From Candidatus Calidihabitans tengchongensis (GTDB taxonomy: Bacteria > Sysuimicrobiota > Sysuimicrobiia > Sysuimicrobiales > Kaftiobacteriaceae), in contig JAVKIE010000009.1 in NCBI GenBank assembly GCA_031459615.1, positions 8,291-72,290 on the forward strand: 64,000 nt of DNA, written 5' to 3'. Shown piece by piece: positions 2,259-14,357 of the stretch. Under the pieces are notes generated by a model. That model did not search any database and was not told the DNA's origin. It saw only the letters and a program-made list of their open reading frames with translations. The translations under genes and the position numbers were made by a program. Within the stretch, counting starts at the first letter, position 1; each line of letters starts with the position of its first letter.

Positions 2259-4578
2259 GGGACGACGCCGCGGGCCGGGGCAGCAGGGCCAGCACCTCCG
2301 CCGCGATCTGACTGACGGCTCCGGGGGGCCCCATCCGCTGCCGTCCTGCCTCGCCTCTGCGGGCCCGCTCGGCGGGATTTCCCAGCAGGCGCAGGACGGC
2401 CTCCGCGGCTTCGTCCCAGGAGCCCACCGCCACCACCGCATCTCCCAGGATGCGCTGCTGCAGCCGCAGGAACGGGCGCGTGAACTGGGGGCCGGGACCC
2501 GGGAACGCCACCACGGGTTTGCCCAGTCCCGCCGCCTGCTCGTTGGCGGTTCCGGCCAGCCCGACCACCACATCAGCGACGCGCACGGCCGCGCCGAAGG
2601 CGCCCGTCAGGCGCACGGCCGCCTCCGAAGAGCGCAGCACGTCTCCGTCCGCCTGCCACCCGGCCCGCACGGCTGTCGCGTGCACGCGGTCCAGGTCCAG
2701 AGACGGCGCCAGCGCGCACACGAGGTTGACCCGCTCCGTCCGGCCCACCCGGCCCGCCAGGGCCAGCAGCAGCTCCAGGTTGCCGTAGGCCTCCTGGCGG
2801 CTTCCCGGCAGCAGGAGTACCGTCGGCAGGCGCGGGTCCAGGCGGGGGTCCGTGCCGTCGGGGCCGATGGTGTCCATCAGGGGGTTGCCCACATGGCGCG
2901 CCGGGACGCCCCGGGCCGCCAGGGCCGAAGCGGTGAGGGCATCCCGGGCGAACACGACCGCGGGCAGCCGGCGCATCAGCCGCAGCTCCAGCCACTGGTG
3001 AGGCTCGCCGTGCTCGGATTTGGCCGTGGCGATGTAGACCACCGGCCGGCCGGCGTGGGCGGCCATCCACAGGCAGTAGAAGTCCCCAATCGCCACCACC
3101 GCGTCGAACCGGCCGCGGCACGCCCGCAGGGTGCGCCGCTGCTGCCACCACAGGCGCAGGACGCCGGCGCGCAGGTCGGCCAGCAGGCCCGGCAGGTGGT
3201 TGCGGAATCCGAACCCCCCCGAGGGCAGCGCGCGCCGGGGGTCCAGGAGCGGGATGTCGCGGTAGGCCGTGCCCAGGCCGACCAGGGGAAAGGCCGCCAC
3301 ATCTGCCGCCGGGCGCAAGGCCTGCGCCAGGACCATCCCCACGGCGTCCTCCCCGTGGCCGTTGCTGACCACCAGGACCGACGGCCGGCCCGCCAGCGGG
3401 GCCGGATCCCCGGAGACCGGGGCAGGCTGGCGATGTTGTGAGAATGCCGCCTGCACGGCGACCAGCATCCAGAACCCTGCCGCCACGTTGACGGTCATGA
3501 TTGTCCCGTCGAACTGCTCCCTCACCAGCAGGCCCACAAACGCCGCCAGCACCGCGGCGGCGAGGATCCGCTCCTCCCGCGTGGCCGCCGCGCGGCGCCA
3601 CCGGTAGCCGGCTGCCAGGGCGCCAGCGATCACGGCGACCAACGCCGCCAGCCCCACCAGTCCCCCTTCGGCCGCCGCGTTGAGGATGATATTGTGGGCG
3701 AACGCGCGGGGTATTGCATCGACCACGACGTAGTCCGGGTGCACCATCCAGAAAGTGTTCATCCCCGTCCCCACCAGCGGGTGGTCACGAAAGATGGCGA
3801 GGGCCGCCCGGGCCAGGGCGAGGCGGTCCTCGTTGGCGGCCGGATTGAAGATGGTGGCTGCCCGCTGCACAATCCCCGGTCCAGCCGAGGGGAACAGCAC
3901 CACCCAGACGGCGGCGGCGGCTGCCAGCGACACCAGTGCCGGTGCCACCCACCGTCCCCGCACCATCACGAGCAGTGCGACCACTCCCGCCGCGGCGCCC
4001 ACCCAGGACCCCCGGGAGTACGTGAGGGCGAGGGCGAGGACAGAGGTCGCTCCGGTCGCGGCGGCCAGCAGGCGGACCGCCCCCGCAGACGTCATCGCCA
4101 GGCCCAGGCTGAGGACGCACGCGATCATCAGCGTCGTCCCCAGCGGGTTTACCGACAGGGCCGGCAGCTCGGCCCGGCCGGTCAGCGGGGTACTGGCAAG
4201 GGTCCACACCGCCGCCCCCAGGCCGCCGGCGACCCACGCCCGGACCAGCGCCACCCCCAGCGAGGGCCTACCGCGCAGGTTCCGGTAGAAGGGGGCAAAT
4301 CCCGCCCACAGCACCAGGGCCGACAGCACGGCGGACCCCGTGGCGGTGCCGCGGTAGGGGGACGCCACCCCCGCCAGCAGAAACGCGGCGACAAATGCCG
4401 CCAGGGGCAGGTCCAGCGGGCTCCGCTCCCAGGGGATCCGCCGCGTCGCCAGGCCTTCTACGATGCCGAACACCAGCAGGAGGAACAGGCCCGCGGCCGC
4501 GTAGCCGGAGCTGAAGACCAGGGCGGTGCCCAGGATCAGCAGGCGTGTGAGGCGCGTCCACCAGGTCTCCTGGTTCAC
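2245..4578 (-). CDS. Fusion protein: an N-terminal O-antigen ligase (Wzy_C/WaaL-like) polytopic domain joined to a C-terminal lipid-A-disaccharide-synthase-related (LpxB-like, TIGR03492-type) glycosyltransferase domain.
   Basis: The 777-aa product starts at a GTG at 4578, overlapping the upstream gene's stop (GTGA). The N-terminal roughly 390 aa are TM-rich with a WaaL-like loop. The C-terminal roughly 380 aa (PSVLVVSNGHGED...) resemble LpxB-related proteins. Confidence 0.7.
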   Translation of the reverse strand: MNQETWWTRLTRLLILGTALVFSSGYAAAGLFLLLVFGIVEGLATRRIPWERSPLDLPLAAFVAAFLLAGVASPYRGTATGSAVLSALVLWAGFAPFYRNLRGRPSLGVALVRAWVAGGLGAAVWTLASTPLTGRAELPALSVNPLGTTLMIACVLSLGLAMTSAGAVRLLAAATGATSVLALALTYSRGSWVGAAAGVVALLVMVRGRWVAPALVSLAAAAAVWVVLFPSAGPGIVQRAATIFNPAANEDRLALARAALAIFRDHPLVGTGMNTFWMVHPDYVVVDAIPRAFAHNIILNAAAEGGLVGLAALVAVIAGALAAGYRWRRAAATREERILAAAVLAAFVGLLVREQFDGTIMTVNVAAGFWMLVAVQAAFSQHRQPAPVSGDPAPLAGRPSVLVVSNGHGEDAVGMVLAQALRPAADVAAFPLVGLGTAYRDIPLLDPRRALPSGGFGFRNHLPGLLADLRAGVLRLWWQQRRTLRACRGRFDAVVAIGDFYCLWMAAHAGRPVVYIATAKSEHGEPHQWLELRLMRRLPAVVFARDALTASALAARGVPARHVGNPLMDTIGPDGTDPRLDPRLPTVLLLPGSRQEAYGNLELLLALAGRVGRTERVNLVCALAPSLDLDRVHATAVRAGWQADGDVLRSSEAAVRLTGAFGAAVRVADVVVGLAGTANEQAAGLGKPVVAFPGPGPQFTRPFLRLQQRILGDAVVAVGSWDEAAEAVLRLLGNPAERARRGEAGRQRMGPPGAVSQIAAEVLALLPRPAASSPSSS

Positions 4579-5471: not shown

Positions 5472-7203
5472 CGGGGGACGAGCGCGGGGAAACGTCCACC
5501 AGCTGCAGGCCGGCCAGCCGGGCGTAGACTCCGCCCCGGCGCAGCAGGTCTTCGTGGCGGCCTTCCTCCACGATGCGCCCGGCCTCCAGGACGACGATCC
5601 GGTCGGCCTTGCGCACCGTGGACAGCCGGTGGGCGATGATGAACGTGGTGCGGCCCTGCATCAGGCGGTCCAGGGCTTCCTGGATCAGGCGCTCGGACTC
5701 GGCATCCAGGGCCGAGGTGGCCTCGTCCAGGATGATGATGCGCGGGTCGGCCAGCACCGCGCGGGCGATGGCCAGGCGCTGGCGCTGCCCGCCCGAGAGC
5801 TCGACCCCGCCTTCGCCGACCATCGTGTCGTAGCCCCGGGGCAGGGCCAGGATGAAATCGTGGGCGTTGGCCACCTTGGCGGCCGCCACCACCTCCTCCT
5901 CGGACGCGTCGGGGCGGGCATAGGCGATGTTGTCGCGCACGGTGCCGACGAACAGCACCGTCTCCTGGGGGACCAGCCCCACCTGCCGGCGCAGCGACCG
6001 CAAGGTGACCGTCCGCAGGTCCCGACCGTCGATCTCCACCACGCCCCGGGTGGGGTCATAGAAGCGGGGGATCAGGTTGACCAGGGTGGACTTGCCGGCG
6101 CCGCTGGACCCCACGATCGCCACCCGCTCCCCGGCCCGCACGTCCAGCGACACGCCCCGCAGGACCATGTGGGAGCCGTCGTAGCTGAACCACACGTCCT
6201 GCATCCGCACGTCGCCCCGCACCGGCGGCAGGTCCTTGGCCTTTGGCGCGTCGGCCACACCCTCGGGTACCCGCAGCACCTCCATCACCCGGTCCAGCGC
6301 TCCCAGCCCCTGGCGCATCCCGGCGTACAGCCGGGACAGGGCGATGGCCGGCTCCACGGCGATCCCCGCATAGGCCAGGAACGACACCAGCGTCCCCGCC
6401 GTGATGGCGCCGGCGGTCACCATCCGCCCGCCCAGCCACAGGACGCCCACCAGGCCCAGAGCGGTGAAGAAGCTGACCACCGGCACCTGCACGGCCGTCA
6501 ACTGGCTGACCCGCAGGTTCTCGCGGAAGGTGCGCTCGTTCTCCTGGACGAACCGCCCGACCTCCCGCTCCTCCTGGACGAAGGCGCGGATGACCCGCGC
6601 GCCGCCGAACGCCTGGCGCAGCAGCGACGCCAGCCCGGCGACCCGCTCCTGGGCCCGCACCGAGACCCGCTGGATCTCCTGACCGAACGCGCGCGCGCTG
6701 CCCAGCAACAGCGGGACCACCACCAGCGTGTACAGGGCCAGCCGCCACTGAAGGATGAACAGCATCGCCGCAATGCCGACCAGCGTAAGAGCCGTGCCGA
6801 TGAAGTCCAGCAGACCCACCAGCAGGGCATTCTGCACCACCTGAGTGTCCTGCAGGCTGCGGGCAATGAGATCCCCGCTGGTCCATCCCGTGAACCGGTC
6901 CAGGGACCAGCGCTGGACCTTCTGGAAGATCATCCGCCGCAGGTCGGCGATCACCCGGTGGCCCAGGTACAGGCCGAAGTACAGCTGGCCGTACAGGAAC
7001 AGGCTGCGCAGGGCGAACGCCCCCAGCATGACCAGGGCGGCCTCGTCCAGCACCGCCAGGCTGCGCGTCCGGACGATGGCGTCGATGGTCAGCCCCGCAT
7101 AGCGCGGCACGAACAGCTGGGCCGCCGTGAGCAGGACCACGCACAGCACGCCCGCGCCCAGGTGGGGCCAGTAGGGGGCGATAAGGCGCGCCAGGCGTCT
7201 CAT
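5464..7203 (-). CDS. ABC exporter of the MsbA/lipid-flippase type, with a fused transmembrane and ATPase domain.
   Basis: Six-TM N-terminal half. The C-terminal half has Walker [10 protein letters not shown], signature LSGGQRQR and Walker [13 protein letters not shown]. The start codon forms an ATGA overlap with the stop of the lpxB-like gene. Confidence 0.85.
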
Positions 7204-8564
7204 GGCCGCCTCTCCGATCCCGCCGCCAGGGACAGGGCGCAGGCAGCGACCCGGTCGGCCGCCCCGGCCTCCGCCGGGTACAGCCGCCGCAGGTCAGCGG
7301 TGATGGCCGCCCGGCGGTCCCGGTCGGCCAGGAGGTCGGCCACCCGGCGCGCCAGGTCGGCCGGGCTGAACCGGCCGACCCACTCGGGTACGACCGCGCG
7401 GACGGCCCGGATGTTGGGCAGGGCCACCAGCCGCGGCCGGCGGAAATACCACGCCGCCGCGGCTCGCTTGAAGAGCCTGCCGACCCCGGGCAGCCGGCTG
7501 GCCCACTCCAGCAGACCTTCGGCCGGCGCGCGGTCAATGAGGTCGAGCGGAACGATGACGGCAAACGGCACGCCGAGCAGGGCGAGCTCCATGGTGTTGG
7601 TGCCCGGGATGGTCAGGACCAGATCGCTGTGCCTCAGGCTCTGCCAGGGCTCGCCGGCGACCCACCGCACCGGCAGGTGAGGCCAGCCCTCGCGCACCCG
7701 CCGCTGCAGGGATGCGACCAGGGCCGGGGAGAGGAACGGGGAGGCGACCACCTGGAACGTCACCCCGGGGCGCAGGCCGGCCAGAGCATCCGCGGCCCGC
7801 AGGAAGAAGGGGACCAGCTCCCGGGCAAACCGGTCCCGGCTGCCCGGCAGGATGGAAACCACTTCGCTTTCCCGCTCGTGACCGAAATCGCCGGCGCGGC
7901 CCGCTTCCGCGTGCGCCGCATCGGCCATCTGCGTCGTCCACCCGTCTCGGAGAGTATCGTCCCCCCCACCCTTCGCCTTCTGACTCCCCTCTCCCCTCCG
8001 GTCCTGACTCCCCTCTCCCCTCCGGGGAGAGGGCGAGGGTGAGGGGGCATGCAGGACCCCAGTCAGGGCGTCCGCCCGGGGATCCCCCGTCACCACCACC
8101 TTGCCCGCGGGGACCCCCAGGCCCACCAGGCGGCGGGCCAGGTCCTCGGAGGTGGCGCAGATGGTCTCAAACGCCGCATGCCGACGGGCCACCAGCGGCG
8201 TCTCCACCAGCGCGCAGGCGGGAACACGCAGCCGGCGGGCCAGCCGCGCGGAGAACCACAGGTCCCCGCCCAGGTGGACCACGGTGGCCTGCGGCACGAT
8301 GTCCAGCGGCTTCAGCCCCAGGGCCACCCGCACCGCCTCCGCCGGTTCCAGGATCCGGTCAAACAGCCCCCAGCTCCGCGCCACCGCCGGCTCGCGCCCG
8401 CCCGCAAACTGGGTGGGCGACAGGACCAGTGTCACCCGCAGCCCCGGCGGGCCCGCGCGACGGGCGGCGTCCGCCACCGGACGGATCCACCCCGCCAGTT
8501 CGCCGGGGCCGTTGCCGGCGAGGATGAGGTCGACGATGTCGGGCAGCGCCGATCCGTGCGGCAT
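7200..8564 (-). CDS. Lipid-A-disaccharide synthase family (GT19, LpxB-like) glycosyltransferase with a low-complexity insertion.
   Basis: N-terminus IVDLILAGNGPGELAGWIRP and the overall length fit the LpxB family. It is the first gene of a four-gene minus-strand operon. Confidence 0.65.
   Translation of the reverse strand: MPHGSALPDIVDLILAGNGPGELAGWIRPVADAARRAGPPGLRVTLVLSPTQFAGGREPAVARSWGLFDRILEPAEAVRVALGLKPLDIVPQATVVHLGGDLWFSARLARRLRVPACALVETPLVARRHAAFETICATSEDLARRLVGLGVPAGKVVVTGDPRADALTGVLHAPSPSPSPRRGEGSQDRRGEGSQKAKGGGDDTLRDGWTTQMADAAHAEAGRAGDFGHERESEVVSILPGSRDRFARELVPFFLRAADALAGLRPGVTFQVVASPFLSPALVASLQRRVREGWPHLPVRWVAGEPWQSLRHSDLVLTIPGTNTMELALLGVPFAVIVPLDLIDRAPAEGLLEWASRLPGVGRLFKRAAAAWYFRRPRLVALPNIRAVRAVVPEWVGRFSPADLARRVADLLADRDRRAAITADLRRLYPAEAGAADRVAACALSLAAGSERRP
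7981..8028 (-). repeat. Perfect in-frame 2 x 24-bp tandem duplication inside the lpxB-like CDS. It encodes RRGEGSQD/RRGEGSQK and is followed by a complementary GA-rich segment at 8029-8048.
   Basis: tgactcccctctcccctccggtcc followed by tgactcccctctcccctccgggga is seen directly in the sequence. Confidence 0.8.
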
Positions 8565-8568
8565 GCTT

Positions 8569-8574
8569 CACGAT
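8569..8574 (-). promoter_or_regulatory. Perfect TATAAT -10 hexamer on the minus strand, 4 bp upstream of the lpxB-like ATG. This would give a leaderless or near-leaderless transcript.
   Basis: The plus strand reads attata, which reverse-complements to TATAAT. No convincing -35 element was found. Confidence 0.25.
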
Positions 8575-8646
8575 TATAGTGTCCCCCCCGGCACGGCGAA
8601 AGAACCGGAGGAGGGAGGGGAGGAGGGGAACCGAACCTGTCGCGAT

Positions 8647-10218
8647 GTGGGCAGACGAACGCCTTTCGCGGTGTGCGTGGTCCTGACGGGCGCTCTGCTG
8701 ATTTCCCCAGGCACCGTTGCACGGGCCTCCGAAGGAGGACACGGGGCCTGCGGGGGTGCCGCCGCGCGCCTGGAGGGTGGCCGCGTGGCGTCGCCGGCGG
8801 TGTCCCCGGACGAGCTGACCGTCGAGGCGGATCGGATCGTCTACGACGATGCCGCCCGGACGGTGGAGGCCGTGGGACGGGTTACCCTCGCCTACCGCGG
8901 GATTGGTGTGCGGGCCGATGTGGTCCGCGTGGACCTGGACGCCGGACGCGTGGAGGCCCGCGGGCACGTCATCATCCTGGACTCCCAGGGACGGGAGATG
9001 CGGGGAGATGTCCTCGTCTATGACGCCCGGCACGAGGCCGCCGAGCTGGCGCCGGCCGAGACGATCGTCAGCGGCGTGTACGTGCGCGCCGCGCAGGTGC
9101 GGGCCACCCGCGAGCGCATCGAGGCCACCGACGCGACCCTCACCACCTGCCATCCCGCCGCGCCTCCCTACCGCGTCACCGCCCAGCGCCTGGAGGTCAT
9201 TCCCGACGACCGCGTGACGGCGTACGGGGCCACCTTGTGGGCGGGCCGCCACTGGCTCCTCGGCCTGCCGGTGCTGGTGGTGTCCCTGCGCAGCCCCCAG
9301 GAGACCGCGGGGAGCTTTCCGAGCGTCGGATACAACAACGTCGACGGGCTGTGGGCGGCCTACAGGTACGCCTTTCCCACGGGCACGCCGCGCGCTGATG
9401 TGTCCGCCGCCCTGGGGACCCTGGCCCAGCGGGTCGAAGGCGGCCTGAGCCTCTCCCCGCAGCCGCTGGCGGGATCATTCCTGTGGTCGGCCGCCGTCCG
9501 CTACGGGTGGCACCGGGAGCAGGGGACAGGCGTCGAGACGACCAGGTTGCGCTATGAGGCGGGCGTGCACCTTCCCCCTGTGGCGTTGGGCCCGACGACC
9601 GAGGCGAGGGCAGCCTGGACCTGGCGGCAGGCCACCTACGCCACCGGCGACCGCCTGGAGACGGCGGTGGCGGACGTGGCGGTCACCCACCGCCTGGGAC
9701 CGCAGGCGCTGCTGTCTTTGACCCACGCCCAACTGCGCCCGGCGGGAACGACGCCGCTGGCCGTGGATGTCGTCAATCCCGCGGACATCGTCGACCGCGT
9801 GACACTGGCCTATGAGACATCCGGCCTGCGGGACGGCACCGTGGCCACCAGGTTTTCCGCCTCGGCCTCCTATGACTTTCTCACGGAGACCCCGTCGGTC
9901 GGCGTGTCCTACGGTGAGCGGATCCCGGGCGCCTACCACTGGACGGTGGGTCCGGCCTACAATCTCACCACCCGCGCGACCACCCTGCGGGCCGACGTCG
10001 GATGGGCCCTGGGGACCGACGCCTACGTCACCGTTCGGGGGACATACAATACGACCACGGCGCTGTTCGAGGACCTGGATTATATCCTCACGGCGCAGGT
10101 CGAGGGCTGTTTTGAGCTCTCGGTCGAGTACCGCCAGGTCCGCCAGGAGCTGTGGGTCTCCCTGGGCCTGGCGGCGTTTCCCCAGGCTCAGATGCAGTTT
10201 CAGTTCCGGGGTCCCTGA
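8647..10218 (+). CDS. LptD/OstA-like protein with an OstA_N beta-jellyroll and a C-terminal beta-rich domain, carrying a signal peptide.
   Basis: The GTG start gives MGRRTPFAVCVVLTGALLISPGTVARA-SEGG, a signal peptide. The OstA-like segment ADRIVYDD...TLTTCHPAAPPYRVTAQRLEVIPDD matches LptD. The SD is weak, with the GGAGG run about 18 nt upstream. Confidence 0.55.
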   Translation: MGRRTPFAVCVVLTGALLISPGTVARASEGGHGACGGAAARLEGGRVASPAVSPDELTVEADRIVYDDAARTVEAVGRVTLAYRGIGVRADVVRVDLDAGRVEARGHVIILDSQGREMRGDVLVYDARHEAAELAPAETIVSGVYVRAAQVRATRERIEATDATLTTCHPAAPPYRVTAQRLEVIPDDRVTAYGATLWAGRHWLLGLPVLVVSLRSPQETAGSFPSVGYNNVDGLWAAYRYAFPTGTPRADVSAALGTLAQRVEGGLSLSPQPLAGSFLWSAAVRYGWHREQGTGVETTRLRYEAGVHLPPVALGPTTEARAAWTWRQATYATGDRLETAVADVAVTHRLGPQALLSLTHAQLRPAGTTPLAVDVVNPADIVDRVTLAYETSGLRDGTVATRFSASASYDFLTETPSVGVSYGERIPGAYHWTVGPAYNLTTRATTLRADVGWALGTDAYVTVRGTYNTTTALFEDLDYILTAQVEGCFELSVEYRQVRQELWVSLGLAAFPQAQMQFQFRGP

Positions 10219-10238
10219 CGATCTTGAGTCGTGGAGTT

Positions 10239-10283
10239 GATTGAGTAGATTGAGCCGATTGCGCAGATTGCGTAGATTGAATG
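10239..10283 (+). repeat. Five tandem copies of a 9-bp unit, GATTG(A/C)(G/A)(T/C)N, ending at the phosphomannomutase start codon.
   Basis: gattgagta gattgagcc gattgcgca gattgcgta gattgaatg. It is a relatively AT-rich patch in a 70% GC window. Confidence 0.8.
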
Positions 10284-11674
10284 TGGTGACCATCTCCCCG
10301 ACGATCTTCCGCGAATACGACATCCGCGGTGTGGCCGGGCGCGACATCACCCCCGAGGTCGCCGAGGCCATTGCCCGGGCGTATGCGTCCTACCTGCGCA
10401 CAGAGGGGGCACAGGAGCGCGAGACTCCGGTCCTGGTGGGCAGGGACAACCGCGAGAGCTCTCCGTGGATCCGCGACGCCGTGGTGCGCGGCCTGGTGGG
10501 AAGCGGATGCCGCGTGGTGGACATCGGCACGGTGATCACCCCGGTCTTCTACTTCGCCCGGGTGCACTACGGCATCGACGGCGGGGTGATGGTCACCGCC
10601 AGCCACAACCCGCCCGAGTTCAACGGCTTCAAGCTGGCCCACGGATTCGGCACCCTGTACGGCGAGCAGATCCAGCAGATCCGCCGGCTGACGGAGGCGG
10701 GGGAGTTTGTCGGGGGGGTCGGGTCCGTGGAGGCCCGCGACGTGATCCCCGCGTACCGGGCGATGCTCCGGGAAAAGGTCCGCCTGGGTCCGCGGCGGCT
10801 GCGGGTGGTGGTGGACTGCGGTAACGGCACCGCCAGCCTGGTGGCCCCCGACGCTCTGGAGGACCTGGGGGTGGAGGTCGTCCGCCTGTACTGCGAGTCC
10901 GACCCGCGCTTTCCCCACCACCACCCCGACCCGGTGCAGCCGGAGAACCTGCGCGACCTGATCGCCGCCGTGCGCCGCGAGGGCGCCGACGTGGGCTTCG
11001 GCTTTGACGGCGACGGGGACCGGCTGGGGGTGGTGGACGACCGGGGCGAGATCGTCTGGGGCGACATCCTGATGATCCTGTTCTGGCGGGAGATCCTGCC
11101 CCGCCACCCCGGGACGGTGGGGATCGTGGAGGTCAAGTGCTCCCAGGCGCTGTACGACGAGATCCAGCGCCTGGGCGGCCGGCCCATGTTCTACCGCACC
11201 GGCCACTCCCTCATCAAGGCCAAGATGCGCGAGGTGGGCGCCGTCTTCACCGGCGAGATGTCGGGCCACATGTTCTTCGCCGACGAGTACTACGGCTACG
11301 ACGACGCCGTCTACGCGGCGGCCCGGCTGCTGCGGATCCTCTCCCACACCGACCGGCCCCTGTCGGCGCTGCTGGCCGACGTGCCCCGCTACCCGGCCAC
11401 CCCCGAGGTCCGCGTGGACTGCCCCGACGAGGTGAAGTTCGAAGTCGTCCGCTCCCTCACCGAGCAGTTCAAGCGGGAGGGCTACCCGGTGATTGACGTG
11501 GACGGGGCCCGGGTGCTGTGTGCGGACGGGTGGGGCCTGGTGCGGGCCAGCAACACCCAGCCGGTCCTGGTCCTGCGGGCGGAGGCCCGGACGCCGGAGG
11601 GCCTGGAGAGGATCAAGCGCACCCTGGAGCAGGCGCTGTCCCGTTTCGCCGACGTCGGTCCCGTGCGCTGGTGA
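10283..11674 (+). CDS. Phosphomannomutase/phosphoglucomutase (alpha-D-phosphohexomutase family).
   Basis: TIFREYDIRGV, the active-site loop TASHNPPEFNGFK and the metal loop FGFDGDGDRLG are all present. The start could instead be TTG 10241 with a GGAG SD, which would make the repeats coding. Confidence 0.8.
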   Translation: MVTISPTIFREYDIRGVAGRDITPEVAEAIARAYASYLRTEGAQERETPVLVGRDNRESSPWIRDAVVRGLVGSGCRVVDIGTVITPVFYFARVHYGIDGGVMVTASHNPPEFNGFKLAHGFGTLYGEQIQQIRRLTEAGEFVGGVGSVEARDVIPAYRAMLREKVRLGPRRLRVVVDCGNGTASLVAPDALEDLGVEVVRLYCESDPRFPHHHPDPVQPENLRDLIAAVRREGADVGFGFDGDGDRLGVVDDRGEIVWGDILMILFWREILPRHPGTVGIVEVKCSQALYDEIQRLGGRPMFYRTGHSLIKAKMREVGAVFTGEMSGHMFFADEYYGYDDAVYAAARLLRILSHTDRPLSALLADVPRYPATPEVRVDCPDEVKFEVVRSLTEQFKREGYPVIDVDGARVLCADGWGLVRASNTQPVLVLRAEARTPEGLERIKRTLEQALSRFADVGPVRW

Positions 11675-12889: not shown

Positions 12890-13821
12890 GGCACCGGCTG
12901 CCTGCTCTACCCGCCGCCCTCGCGATCCTGCTGGGTGGACTGCTCGCCCTCTCCGGGCCTGCCGGCGCCTCCTCCAGGGCACAGACGTACGTAGTTCGCC
13001 CGGGCGACACCCTGTGGGCCATCGGCGCCCGTCTGGGGGTGCCAGCCAACACCCTGGCGCAGGCCAACGGAATCTCGGATCCGGAACGACTGGTCCCCGG
13101 GCAGGTCCTGCGGGTGCCGGCGGGGCCGGCCTCGCGGCGGCCTCCTTCCTCCGGCACCCGGCCGGCCGCTGCATCACGGGGTCCGGCGCTGGTGGTCGCC
13201 GTCCACCGGGTGCGGTGGGGCGACACCCTGCTGGCCATCGCCCGCCGCTACCGCGTCCCCGTCGAGTGGATCGTCCGGGCCAACGGGCTGTGGTCGGACA
13301 GGATCCACCCCGGCCAGCGCCTGGCGATTCCCACCCGGCGGGGAGTGGAGGTGCTGGCGCGCCGCCACGGACCTCCCCCGCGCCCGATCCCGGTGCCCCC
13401 GGCCGCGTTCGCGCGCTCGGCGGCGGCCGGAACGGCGGCGTGGGATCTGGTCCAGCGGGCACGCCGGTACCTGGGCGTCCCCTACCGCTGGGGCGGCGAG
13501 TCGCCTGCGGGGATGGACTGCTCGGGGCTGGTGCACCGGGTCTTCGCCCCGTACCTGTCGGGGGTGGGGCGGCTGACCTCCTACGACTACTTCCGCCTCG
13601 GCCGGCCGGTCCGGCCGGAGGCGATCCTGCCGGGCGACGTGGTGTTTTTCACCACCGACGAGCCGGGGCCGTCCCACGTGGGGATCTTCATCGGCGCCGG
13701 CCTGTTCATCCACGCCTCCTCGGCCGCGGGCGAGGTCACCGTCACCTCCCTGGACGACCCGCTGTACCGGGAGCGCTTCCTCGGGGTGCGGCGCCTGGTC
13801 GACCTGTCGGCGCGCAATTGA
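12886..13821 (+). CDS. Secreted peptidoglycan hydrolase with two LysM domains and an NlpC/P60 domain.
   Basis: Signal peptide. Two copies of [13 protein letters not shown]...NGI; Cys/His catalytic region MDCSGLV ... SHVGIF. Confidence 0.85.
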
Positions 13822-13846
13822 CGGGGCGGGGGGTGGCCGGTACAAT
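13818..13846 (+). promoter_or_regulatory. Sigma-70-like promoter for rplM-rpsI: TTGACG, a 17-nt spacer, then TACAAT.
   Basis: ttgacg gggcggggggtggccgg tacaat, located 32 nt upstream of the rplM GTG. Confidence 0.5.
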
Positions 13847-13877
13847 GGTCCCCGCCGTGTCACGCAGCGCTGCACCT

Positions 13878-14357
13878 GTGAAAACCTTCCAGCCTGCTCC
13901 GGGCTCTGTCGTCCGCCGGTGGCACGTCGTCGACGCCGAGGGGATGGTCCTGGGCCGCCTGGCGAGCCGGGTGGCGACACTCCTGCGGGGCAAGCACAAG
14001 CCCGAGTTCAGCCCGCACATGGACGTGGGCGACGGGGTGATCGTCATCAACGCGGCCAAGGTGCGGCTGACCGGCCGCAAGGCCCAGCAGGAGAAGGTGT
14101 ACTGGCACACCGGCTATCCGGGCGGGCTCAAGCAGGCCACCCTGGGCCAGCTGCTGCGAACCGACCCGGAGCGGGTCATCACCGAGGCGGTCTGGGGGAT
14201 GCTGCCCAAGACCTCCCTGGGGCGCAAGATGCTGCGCCGGTTGAAGGTCTACCGGGGCAGCGAGCACCCTCACCGGGCGCAGAAGCCCGAAATGGCGGAC
14301 CTGCGGGACCGGCGATCAGCGGTCAGAGATCAGGGATCGGACGGGACGGAGACGTGA
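13878..14357 (+). CDS. rplM: 50S ribosomal protein L13.
   Basis: KTFQP...[28 protein letters not shown] is an L13 hallmark. It has a C-terminal extension of about 20 aa. Confidence 0.9.

Follow-up and report, generated by a model that had tools for sequence, protein, structure and literature searches.

A lineage-specific 9-bp tandem repeat, probably recent and non-coding, upstream of a PMM/PGM gene in the uncultured phylum CSP1-3/Sysuimicrobiota

An array of short direct repeats was noticed between an LptD-like gene and a PMM/PGM gene, where it fills the 67-bp spacer. The genes that frame it in the window (by which we mean the whole 64-kb stretch of DNA analysed) are the following:

8647..10218, plus strand: LptD-like gene for a large protein, with its stop codon TGA at 10216-18 (weak Pfam match to LptD, E=0.005, short of the curated cutoff)
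10286..11674, plus strand: PMM/PGM (alpha-D-phosphohexomutase) gene, likeliest start GTG 10286, with GTG 10283 equally possible
7200-8564, minus strand: LpxB-like gene, further upstream on the opposite strand

The PMM/PGM product carries the PGM_PMM domains I-IV (PF02878, PF02879, PF02880 and PF00408), all above cutoffs, and has thousands of homologues; downstream come genes for an NTP-transferase and a LysM/NlpC-P60 protein, and the locus is a cell-envelope neighbourhood. In the case of the LptD-like gene, the annotation of the sister assemblies places the start at 8785 (477 aa), which is probably too far downstream; a start at GTG 8647 would add VGRRTPFAVCVVLTGALLISPGTVARA, signal-peptide-like in appearance, and a purine tract, GGAGGAGGGAGGGGAGGAGGGGA, lies upstream of the gene at 8608-8630. 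The LpxB-like gene contains an exact 24-bp tandem duplication, CTGACTCCCCTCTCCCCTCCGGTC, at 7980-8025 (1.9 copies, 100% matches), which on the minus strand encodes a repeated RRGEGSQ segment.

Within the spacer and at the start of the PMM frame, the features are:

10239..10283, unstranded: five in-phase 9-bp units, GATTGAGTA, GATTGAGCC, GATTGCGCA, GATTGCGTA and GATTGAATG, the unit written as a pattern being GATTGNNNNGATTG
10220..10238, unstranded: degenerate repeat-like copies GATCTTGAGTC and GTGGAGTT, after the stop codon of the LptD-like gene and upstream of the units with a perfect core
10233..10236, plus strand: GGAG, a possible Shine-Dalgarno (SD); from it to TTG 10241 are 4 nt, and to the GTG starts 46-49 nt
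10241..10243, plus strand: TTG, the first in-frame start after the in-frame TGA 10238-40, disfavoured

After the upstream stop codon, the spacer reads cgtGGAGttGATTGAGTA GATTGAGCC GATTGCGCA GATTGCGTA GATTGAATG tgGTGACC or, taken from the possible SD onwards, ...GGAG TTGA TTGAGTAGA TTGAGCCGA TTGCGCAGA TTGCGTAGA TTGAATGTG GTG ACC.... The GATTG core, with its starts exactly 9 bp apart, begins at 10239, 10248, 10257, 10266 and 10275; it is invariant, while the remaining 4 of the 9 positions vary between copies. All five of these starts had been given by an earlier note on this DNA and are confirmed to the nucleotide, and its other coordinates hold as well: GGAG is at 10233-36, TTG 10241 comes as the first start behind the in-frame TGA, and GTG 10283 is in frame. 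TRF agrees (10234-10280, period 9, 5.2 copies, 81% matches, score 52) and ranks the array among the five highest-scoring of the window. GATTG is depleted in the window as a whole, with 25 sites vs. 54 +/- 6 expected, and 5 of these 25 scarce sites fall in the 41 bp of the array, all in phase, so that the array is a duplication and not the work of chance. The AT-enriched island that the same note described is also there, given that the GC content is 0.47-0.50 at 10190-10279 vs. about 0.70 in the flanks; the host genome has 70% GC, and the array core is AT-rich by comparison. Farther upstream, 10230-10244 is a degenerate copy with 73% identity to the reference copy and, by inspection, GATCTTGAGTC at 10220-30 is a further one; since these degenerate copies run up to the stop codon, nearly all of the 67-bp spacer is repeat-derived. 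A mini-ORF of six codons including the stop (GTG GAG TTG ATT GAG TAG, 10231-10248) shares sequence with both the GGAG and the first repeat unit; its frame is not that of PMM, and it is probably meaningless.

The same five units were found unchanged in 8 other assemblies of the same species (99.6-99.95% nucleotide identity). The only polymorphism of the spacer within the species is T/C at 10225, in the degenerate copies, with 0 indels; only 0.28 segregating sites would be expected in the array, and 0 were seen, so its identity within the species is uninformative on constraint. Its copy number is not visibly unstable, with five copies in the window and in each of the 8 assemblies. In the databases, the sequences nearest to it belong to MAGs with the label Armatimonadota (accession block JAVK...), and these MAGs have relatives named Candidatus Sysuimicrobiota or Fervidifonticultor (phylum CSP1-3, Tengchong hot springs).

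Beyond the species, the array disappears. A contig search yielded 80 species-level loci, with a best match of 79% among the matches listed and the window's own species not among them; the upstream DNA of the 22 closest among the matches listed is free of the array, and a count over the loci compared gave each of the 80 at most one GATTG-N4-GATTG match, with more than one only in the same-species assemblies. Two-copy matches in two of the loci (L004 and L005) are coincidental, lying within a conserved coding region. The array is likewise absent from a relative with a 90%-identical PMM (L084/L085), which carries a HEPN/MNT insert at the same junction; from an 85% relative (L082), whose 152-bp spacer is unrelated and comes with a strong SD, GGGAGAGGGAGGG, and an ATG start; and from an 81% relative (L083), with a 232-bp spacer. 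The insert is a HEPN/nucleotidyltransferase (MNT) toxin-antitoxin pair of GCA_037440005.1 (L084 2279-2993, L085 158-872), inserted exactly in the gap that separates PMM from the LptD-like gene. The order LptD-like to PMM is kept in 13 relatives, and in the syntenic ones the distance from stop to start varies between a 4-nt overlap (ATGA) and 232 nt. From these varied spacers and inserts it follows that the junction is plastic, the array being the form that it takes in one lineage; the junction is also an insertion hot spot. Close relatives with an otherwise identical gene, where the earlier note had proposed to look for absence of the array, all keep it, and it is missing only at 90% protein identity and below. 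Taken together, the array is a real, lineage-specific, imperfect repeat in a plastic spacer, of an ordinary and known kind.

The period of the array is a multiple of three, and the earlier note had left two readings undecided, a non-coding array of regulator-binding iterons or a translated (S/R)RL x4 extension of the enzyme. In the latter, the product from TTG 10241 would begin MSRLSRLRRLRRLNVV, with MSRLSRLRRLRRLN as its 14-residue extension. In the PMM frame there is a GTG at 10283 and a second one at 10286; the NCBI annotation of the sister MAGs starts PMM at GTG 10286 (462 aa, MTISPT...), and another gene caller chose GTG 10283. Counted back from the conserved F of IFREYDIRG, the start in the syntenic relatives is 6-13 codons away and often the sole possible one. 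In 124 of 125 homologues there are 1-15 residues before this F (mode 9), and the outlier, with 37, carries an internal Met where the start usually falls; the window would have 7 residues from GTG 10286, 8 from GTG 10283, and 22 from TTG 10241. Not one of the 125 homologues has an R/L repeat extension. A protein search with the first 100 residues including the extension, aimed at contig-end fragments or extended gene calls in intermediate relatives, gave only 9 matches, all at 72% identity or below, and added nothing to this. Pfam domain I starts at residue 7 of the 462-aa form, with the extension outside it.

The composition of the array points the same way. The 14 extra codons are TTG (five times), AGA (three times), AGT, AGC, CGA, CGC, CGT and AAT, and 12 of the 14 each make up 3% or less of their own synonymous family, TTG being 3% of the Leu codons and AGA 0.6% of the Arg codons in the genes. 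Their GC3 is 0.50 vs. 0.92 in genes, and their codon score is below that of all 10,705 14-codon gene windows, so that the array does not look like coding sequence. As to the spacing, the SD-led relatives have 5-8 nt between GGAGG and the start vs. 4 nt in GGAG-TTG 10241.

It is unlikely, then, that the array is translated into a PMM with an Arg/Leu-rich extension, even though this alternative has its own arguments. It would have ribosomes terminate at TGA 10216-18 or be recruited by GGAG 10233-36, and the expansion would be tolerated, the PMM frame running open through the 9-bp unit. Indeed, no stop interrupts this frame from TTG 10241 on, which comes right behind the in-frame TGA; the GGAG stands 4 nt upstream of this TTG, while the GTGs have no SD; the PMM frame alone is without stop codons, the other two being closed; and 3 of 5 differences between copies are synonymous (AGT/AGC, CGC/CGT, AGA/CGA), which is not significant (estimated P about 0.12). 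Rare codons, moreover, speak against an old coding sequence and not against the translation of a recent expansion, and TTG with an SD can initiate translation in mycobacteria (PMC4633059). Against this, TTG is a rare start codon, the SD is nearer to it than in any of the SD-led relatives, the extra codons are rarer than those of any gene window, both gene callers chose a GTG, none of the 125 homologues has an extension of this type, and the extension falls outside the enzyme's first domain. Comparison and composition lean clearly to a non-coding array and a canonical-length N-terminus from GTG 10286 or 10283. Of the two readings in the earlier note, the non-coding one is thus the better founded as far as the N-terminus goes (rare codons, short SD spacing, TTG start, homologues), without its iteron label. 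The remark that either outcome would be unusual for this enzyme family was overstated, with a highly plastic spacer upstream of PMM and 9-bp GATTG repeats common in metagenomes.

The iteron label leads to the next alternative, in which the array would be an operator of five phased 9-bp sites, each with a GATTG core, for a putative regulator of PMM, DNA-binding or, should the array be transcribed, RNA-binding, and control of PMM would set the sugar-nucleotide supply for the envelope. The array does lie immediately upstream of the gene start in an AT-rich island, and its core is invariant with four variable spacer positions (P = 0.015 with five units, 0.085 with four full units); this invariance is marginally unusual and could hint at constraint. 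Ribbon-helix-helix regulators bind operator arrays, for instance the heptad arrays bound by Omega of pSM19035, and, like these and like iterons, the present array has several phased direct repeats with a conserved core near what may be a promoter region. Iterons, however, are usually 17-22 bp long and are found at an origin beside a rep gene, whereas here the unit is 9 bp, there is no origin context and no rep gene among the neighbours, and the locus is a chromosomal one that keeps its gene order in relatives. The search for further arrays that the earlier note had proposed gave no second GATTG-N4-GATTG site in the 64-kb window (by estimate about 2-3% of the genome), nor was a cognate binding protein found there; the motif is not at other promoters of the window, nor upstream of orthologues at 90% identity and below, whose bearers regulate PMM without it. 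A GATTG pair near 3845-3873 is located within a long ORF and has no bearing on this. The 9-bp period is off the helical repeat, and no regulator gene adjoins the array.

Readings at the RNA level fare no better, since no RNA motif or structure was found: the fold of the array region has z = +0.83, that is, no structure, and Rfam has no family at the array, the only match being gyrA RNA (E = 0.39), outside it. TRAP, HutP, CsrA and Hfq have known site periodicities that differ from the triplet spacing of the array, and binding of these types was discarded for this unfit spacing together with the lack of structure or Rfam match. A metagenome scan for at least four GATTG at a 9-bp period returned at least 120 stretches with GC contents of 0.15-0.76, showing how common unrelated repeats of this kind are; those listed are generic, mostly perfect 9-bp repeats of unrelated organisms, none of them resembling our unit or coming from this lineage, and the scan is therefore silent on a regulon. 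With no second array in the window, with absence below about 99% identity, and with a core invariance that is only marginal, an operator role is improbable, and regulator-binding iterons find no support.

Finally, phase variation is typically found at tandem repeats upstream of surface genes, as in the contingency loci of Neisseria and Haemophilus, and a repeat upstream of an envelope-polysaccharide gene, where slipped-strand change in copy number would alter promoter geometry or SD distance and switch PMM, is its classic setting, but this reading is very improbable in view of the exactly five copies, without indels, in 9/9 sequences (the window plus 8 assemblies, a MAG consensus that would hide minority variants) and of the imperfection of the copies (81% matches, 4/9 positions differing), because of which slippage is suppressed.

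The reading that we prefer is that the array is non-coding and stems from a recent 9-bp duplication in one species-level lineage, with PMM translated from GTG 10286 (or 10283), for which we estimate a probability of about 0.65. An imperfect tandem duplication would have arisen recently in this lineage and would now take up almost the whole of the 67-bp spacer. If the array is collapsed to one unit, what is left is GGAG-TTGA-TTGAATGTG-GTG, an ordinary ribosome-binding region, and the repeat probably grew by slippage from such a single unit in the ancestral region, in-frame slippage of the 9-nt unit being a process that would yield the present array. Its only service, we infer, would be as an AT-rich, unstructured 5' region of the PMM message. 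Among known systems, the array is close to the VNTR- or minisatellite-like intergenic repeats of bacteria, sharing with them a short unit repeated head to tail, restriction to one lineage, a variable spacer, and slippage as the most plausible origin; it differs in having no copy-number polymorphism (9 sequences) and in a core that is unusually AT-rich for a 70% GC genome.

A direct repeat of 14 nt, with 13/14 matching, has the array and the first three codons of PMM between its arms, which are 83 bp apart:

10212..10225, plus strand: upstream arm TCCCTGACGATCTT, spanning the upstream stop codon
10295..10308, plus strand: downstream arm TCCCCGACGATCTT, in PMM codons 4-8

It may be the scar of a remodelling of the junction by duplication, as a weak hint. 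We rejected it as proof of an insertion, its P being only about 0.04 (the share of Markov-simulated 321-nt sequences with such a repeat).

With the non-coding array goes the question of how PMM would be transcribed and its translation begun, given that no SD was found directly upstream of GTG 10283 or 10286. Two hexamers of the array come into play here:

10250..10255, plus strand: -35-like hexamer TTGAGC, created by the repeat and paired with TAGATT over a 17-nt spacer
10273..10278, plus strand: -10-like hexamer TAGATT, ending 7 nt before GTG 10286

With 8/12 consensus matches, TTGAGC-N17-TAGATT is the best pair in the array, and the 17 nt between a -35-like TTGNNN and a -10-like NAGATT follow from the repeat itself because 2 x 9 + 5 = 23. 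Pairs with 8/12 matches number 15 in the window vs. 11.4 +/- 3.8 in Markov simulations and are not enriched, so a promoter at the array is something that we infer; a promoter scan at a threshold of 9/12 found none at the array, nor was a terminator found. Tentatively, and with more doubt than confidence, the pair may be a weak sigma-70-type promoter giving a leaderless or near-leaderless PMM transcript. Alternatively, the message could come by read-through from the upstream gene, with PMM initiation in the unstructured tract without an SD.

Several neighbouring and related starts bear on this. One relative (L001) has TATAAT 7 nt before its GTG start, and others have TACAAT-type -10 boxes 25-35 nt upstream of PMM, from which we take a promoter of its own for PMM to be usual in this group. 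In the same window, TACGAT lies 9 nt before GTG 22828. The minus-strand LpxB-like gene can start at one ATG only; an in-frame stop lies one codon before this ATG, and a perfect TATAAT stands 8 nt upstream of it (8564-8580). By these signs the gene is a strong leaderless candidate in this uncultured phylum. Just after the LysM/NlpC-P60 gene, at 13818-13880, a strong sigma-70-like promoter TTGACG-N17-TACAAT (10/12) is found upstream of an L13-like ORF (GTG AAA ACC TTC), whose short leader is without an evident Shine-Dalgarno, so that SD-independent initiation may be common here. Leaderless starts in this group are plausible, judging from such motifs.

A leaderless GTG works well in mycobacteria and poorly in E. 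coli (PMC4633059), and the leaderless genes of mycobacteria, Deinococcus and Thermus have their -10 box about 7 nt upstream of the ATG or GTG (PMC4633059). The present locus is like them in the TAGATT that ends at this distance from a GTG without an SD, and in the TATAAT near the LpxB-like ATG; it is unlike them in that the hexamers are weak (8/12), and in that -35 and -10 would both be by-products of one repeated unit. A bolder proposal is that the five-fold unit built a working module, either a self-assembled promoter with a leaderless GTG, in which each unit would bring a -35-like TTG and a -10-like AGATT into register by the same arithmetic, or a five-site operator for an envelope-sugar regulator; we regard this as a long shot.

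The value of these findings is mainly one of annotation, the likely start of PMM/PGM being GTG 10286 or 10283 and not TTG 10241. Beyond this, the LptD-like/PMM junction is a rearrangement hot spot in the lineage, with an overlap, varied spacers, a toxin-antitoxin insertion and the array itself. If the promoter reading were true, it would mean a promoter made de novo by tandem duplication, a modest result, and it would provide the first evidence of leaderless genes in the uncultured CSP1-3/Sysuimicrobiota.
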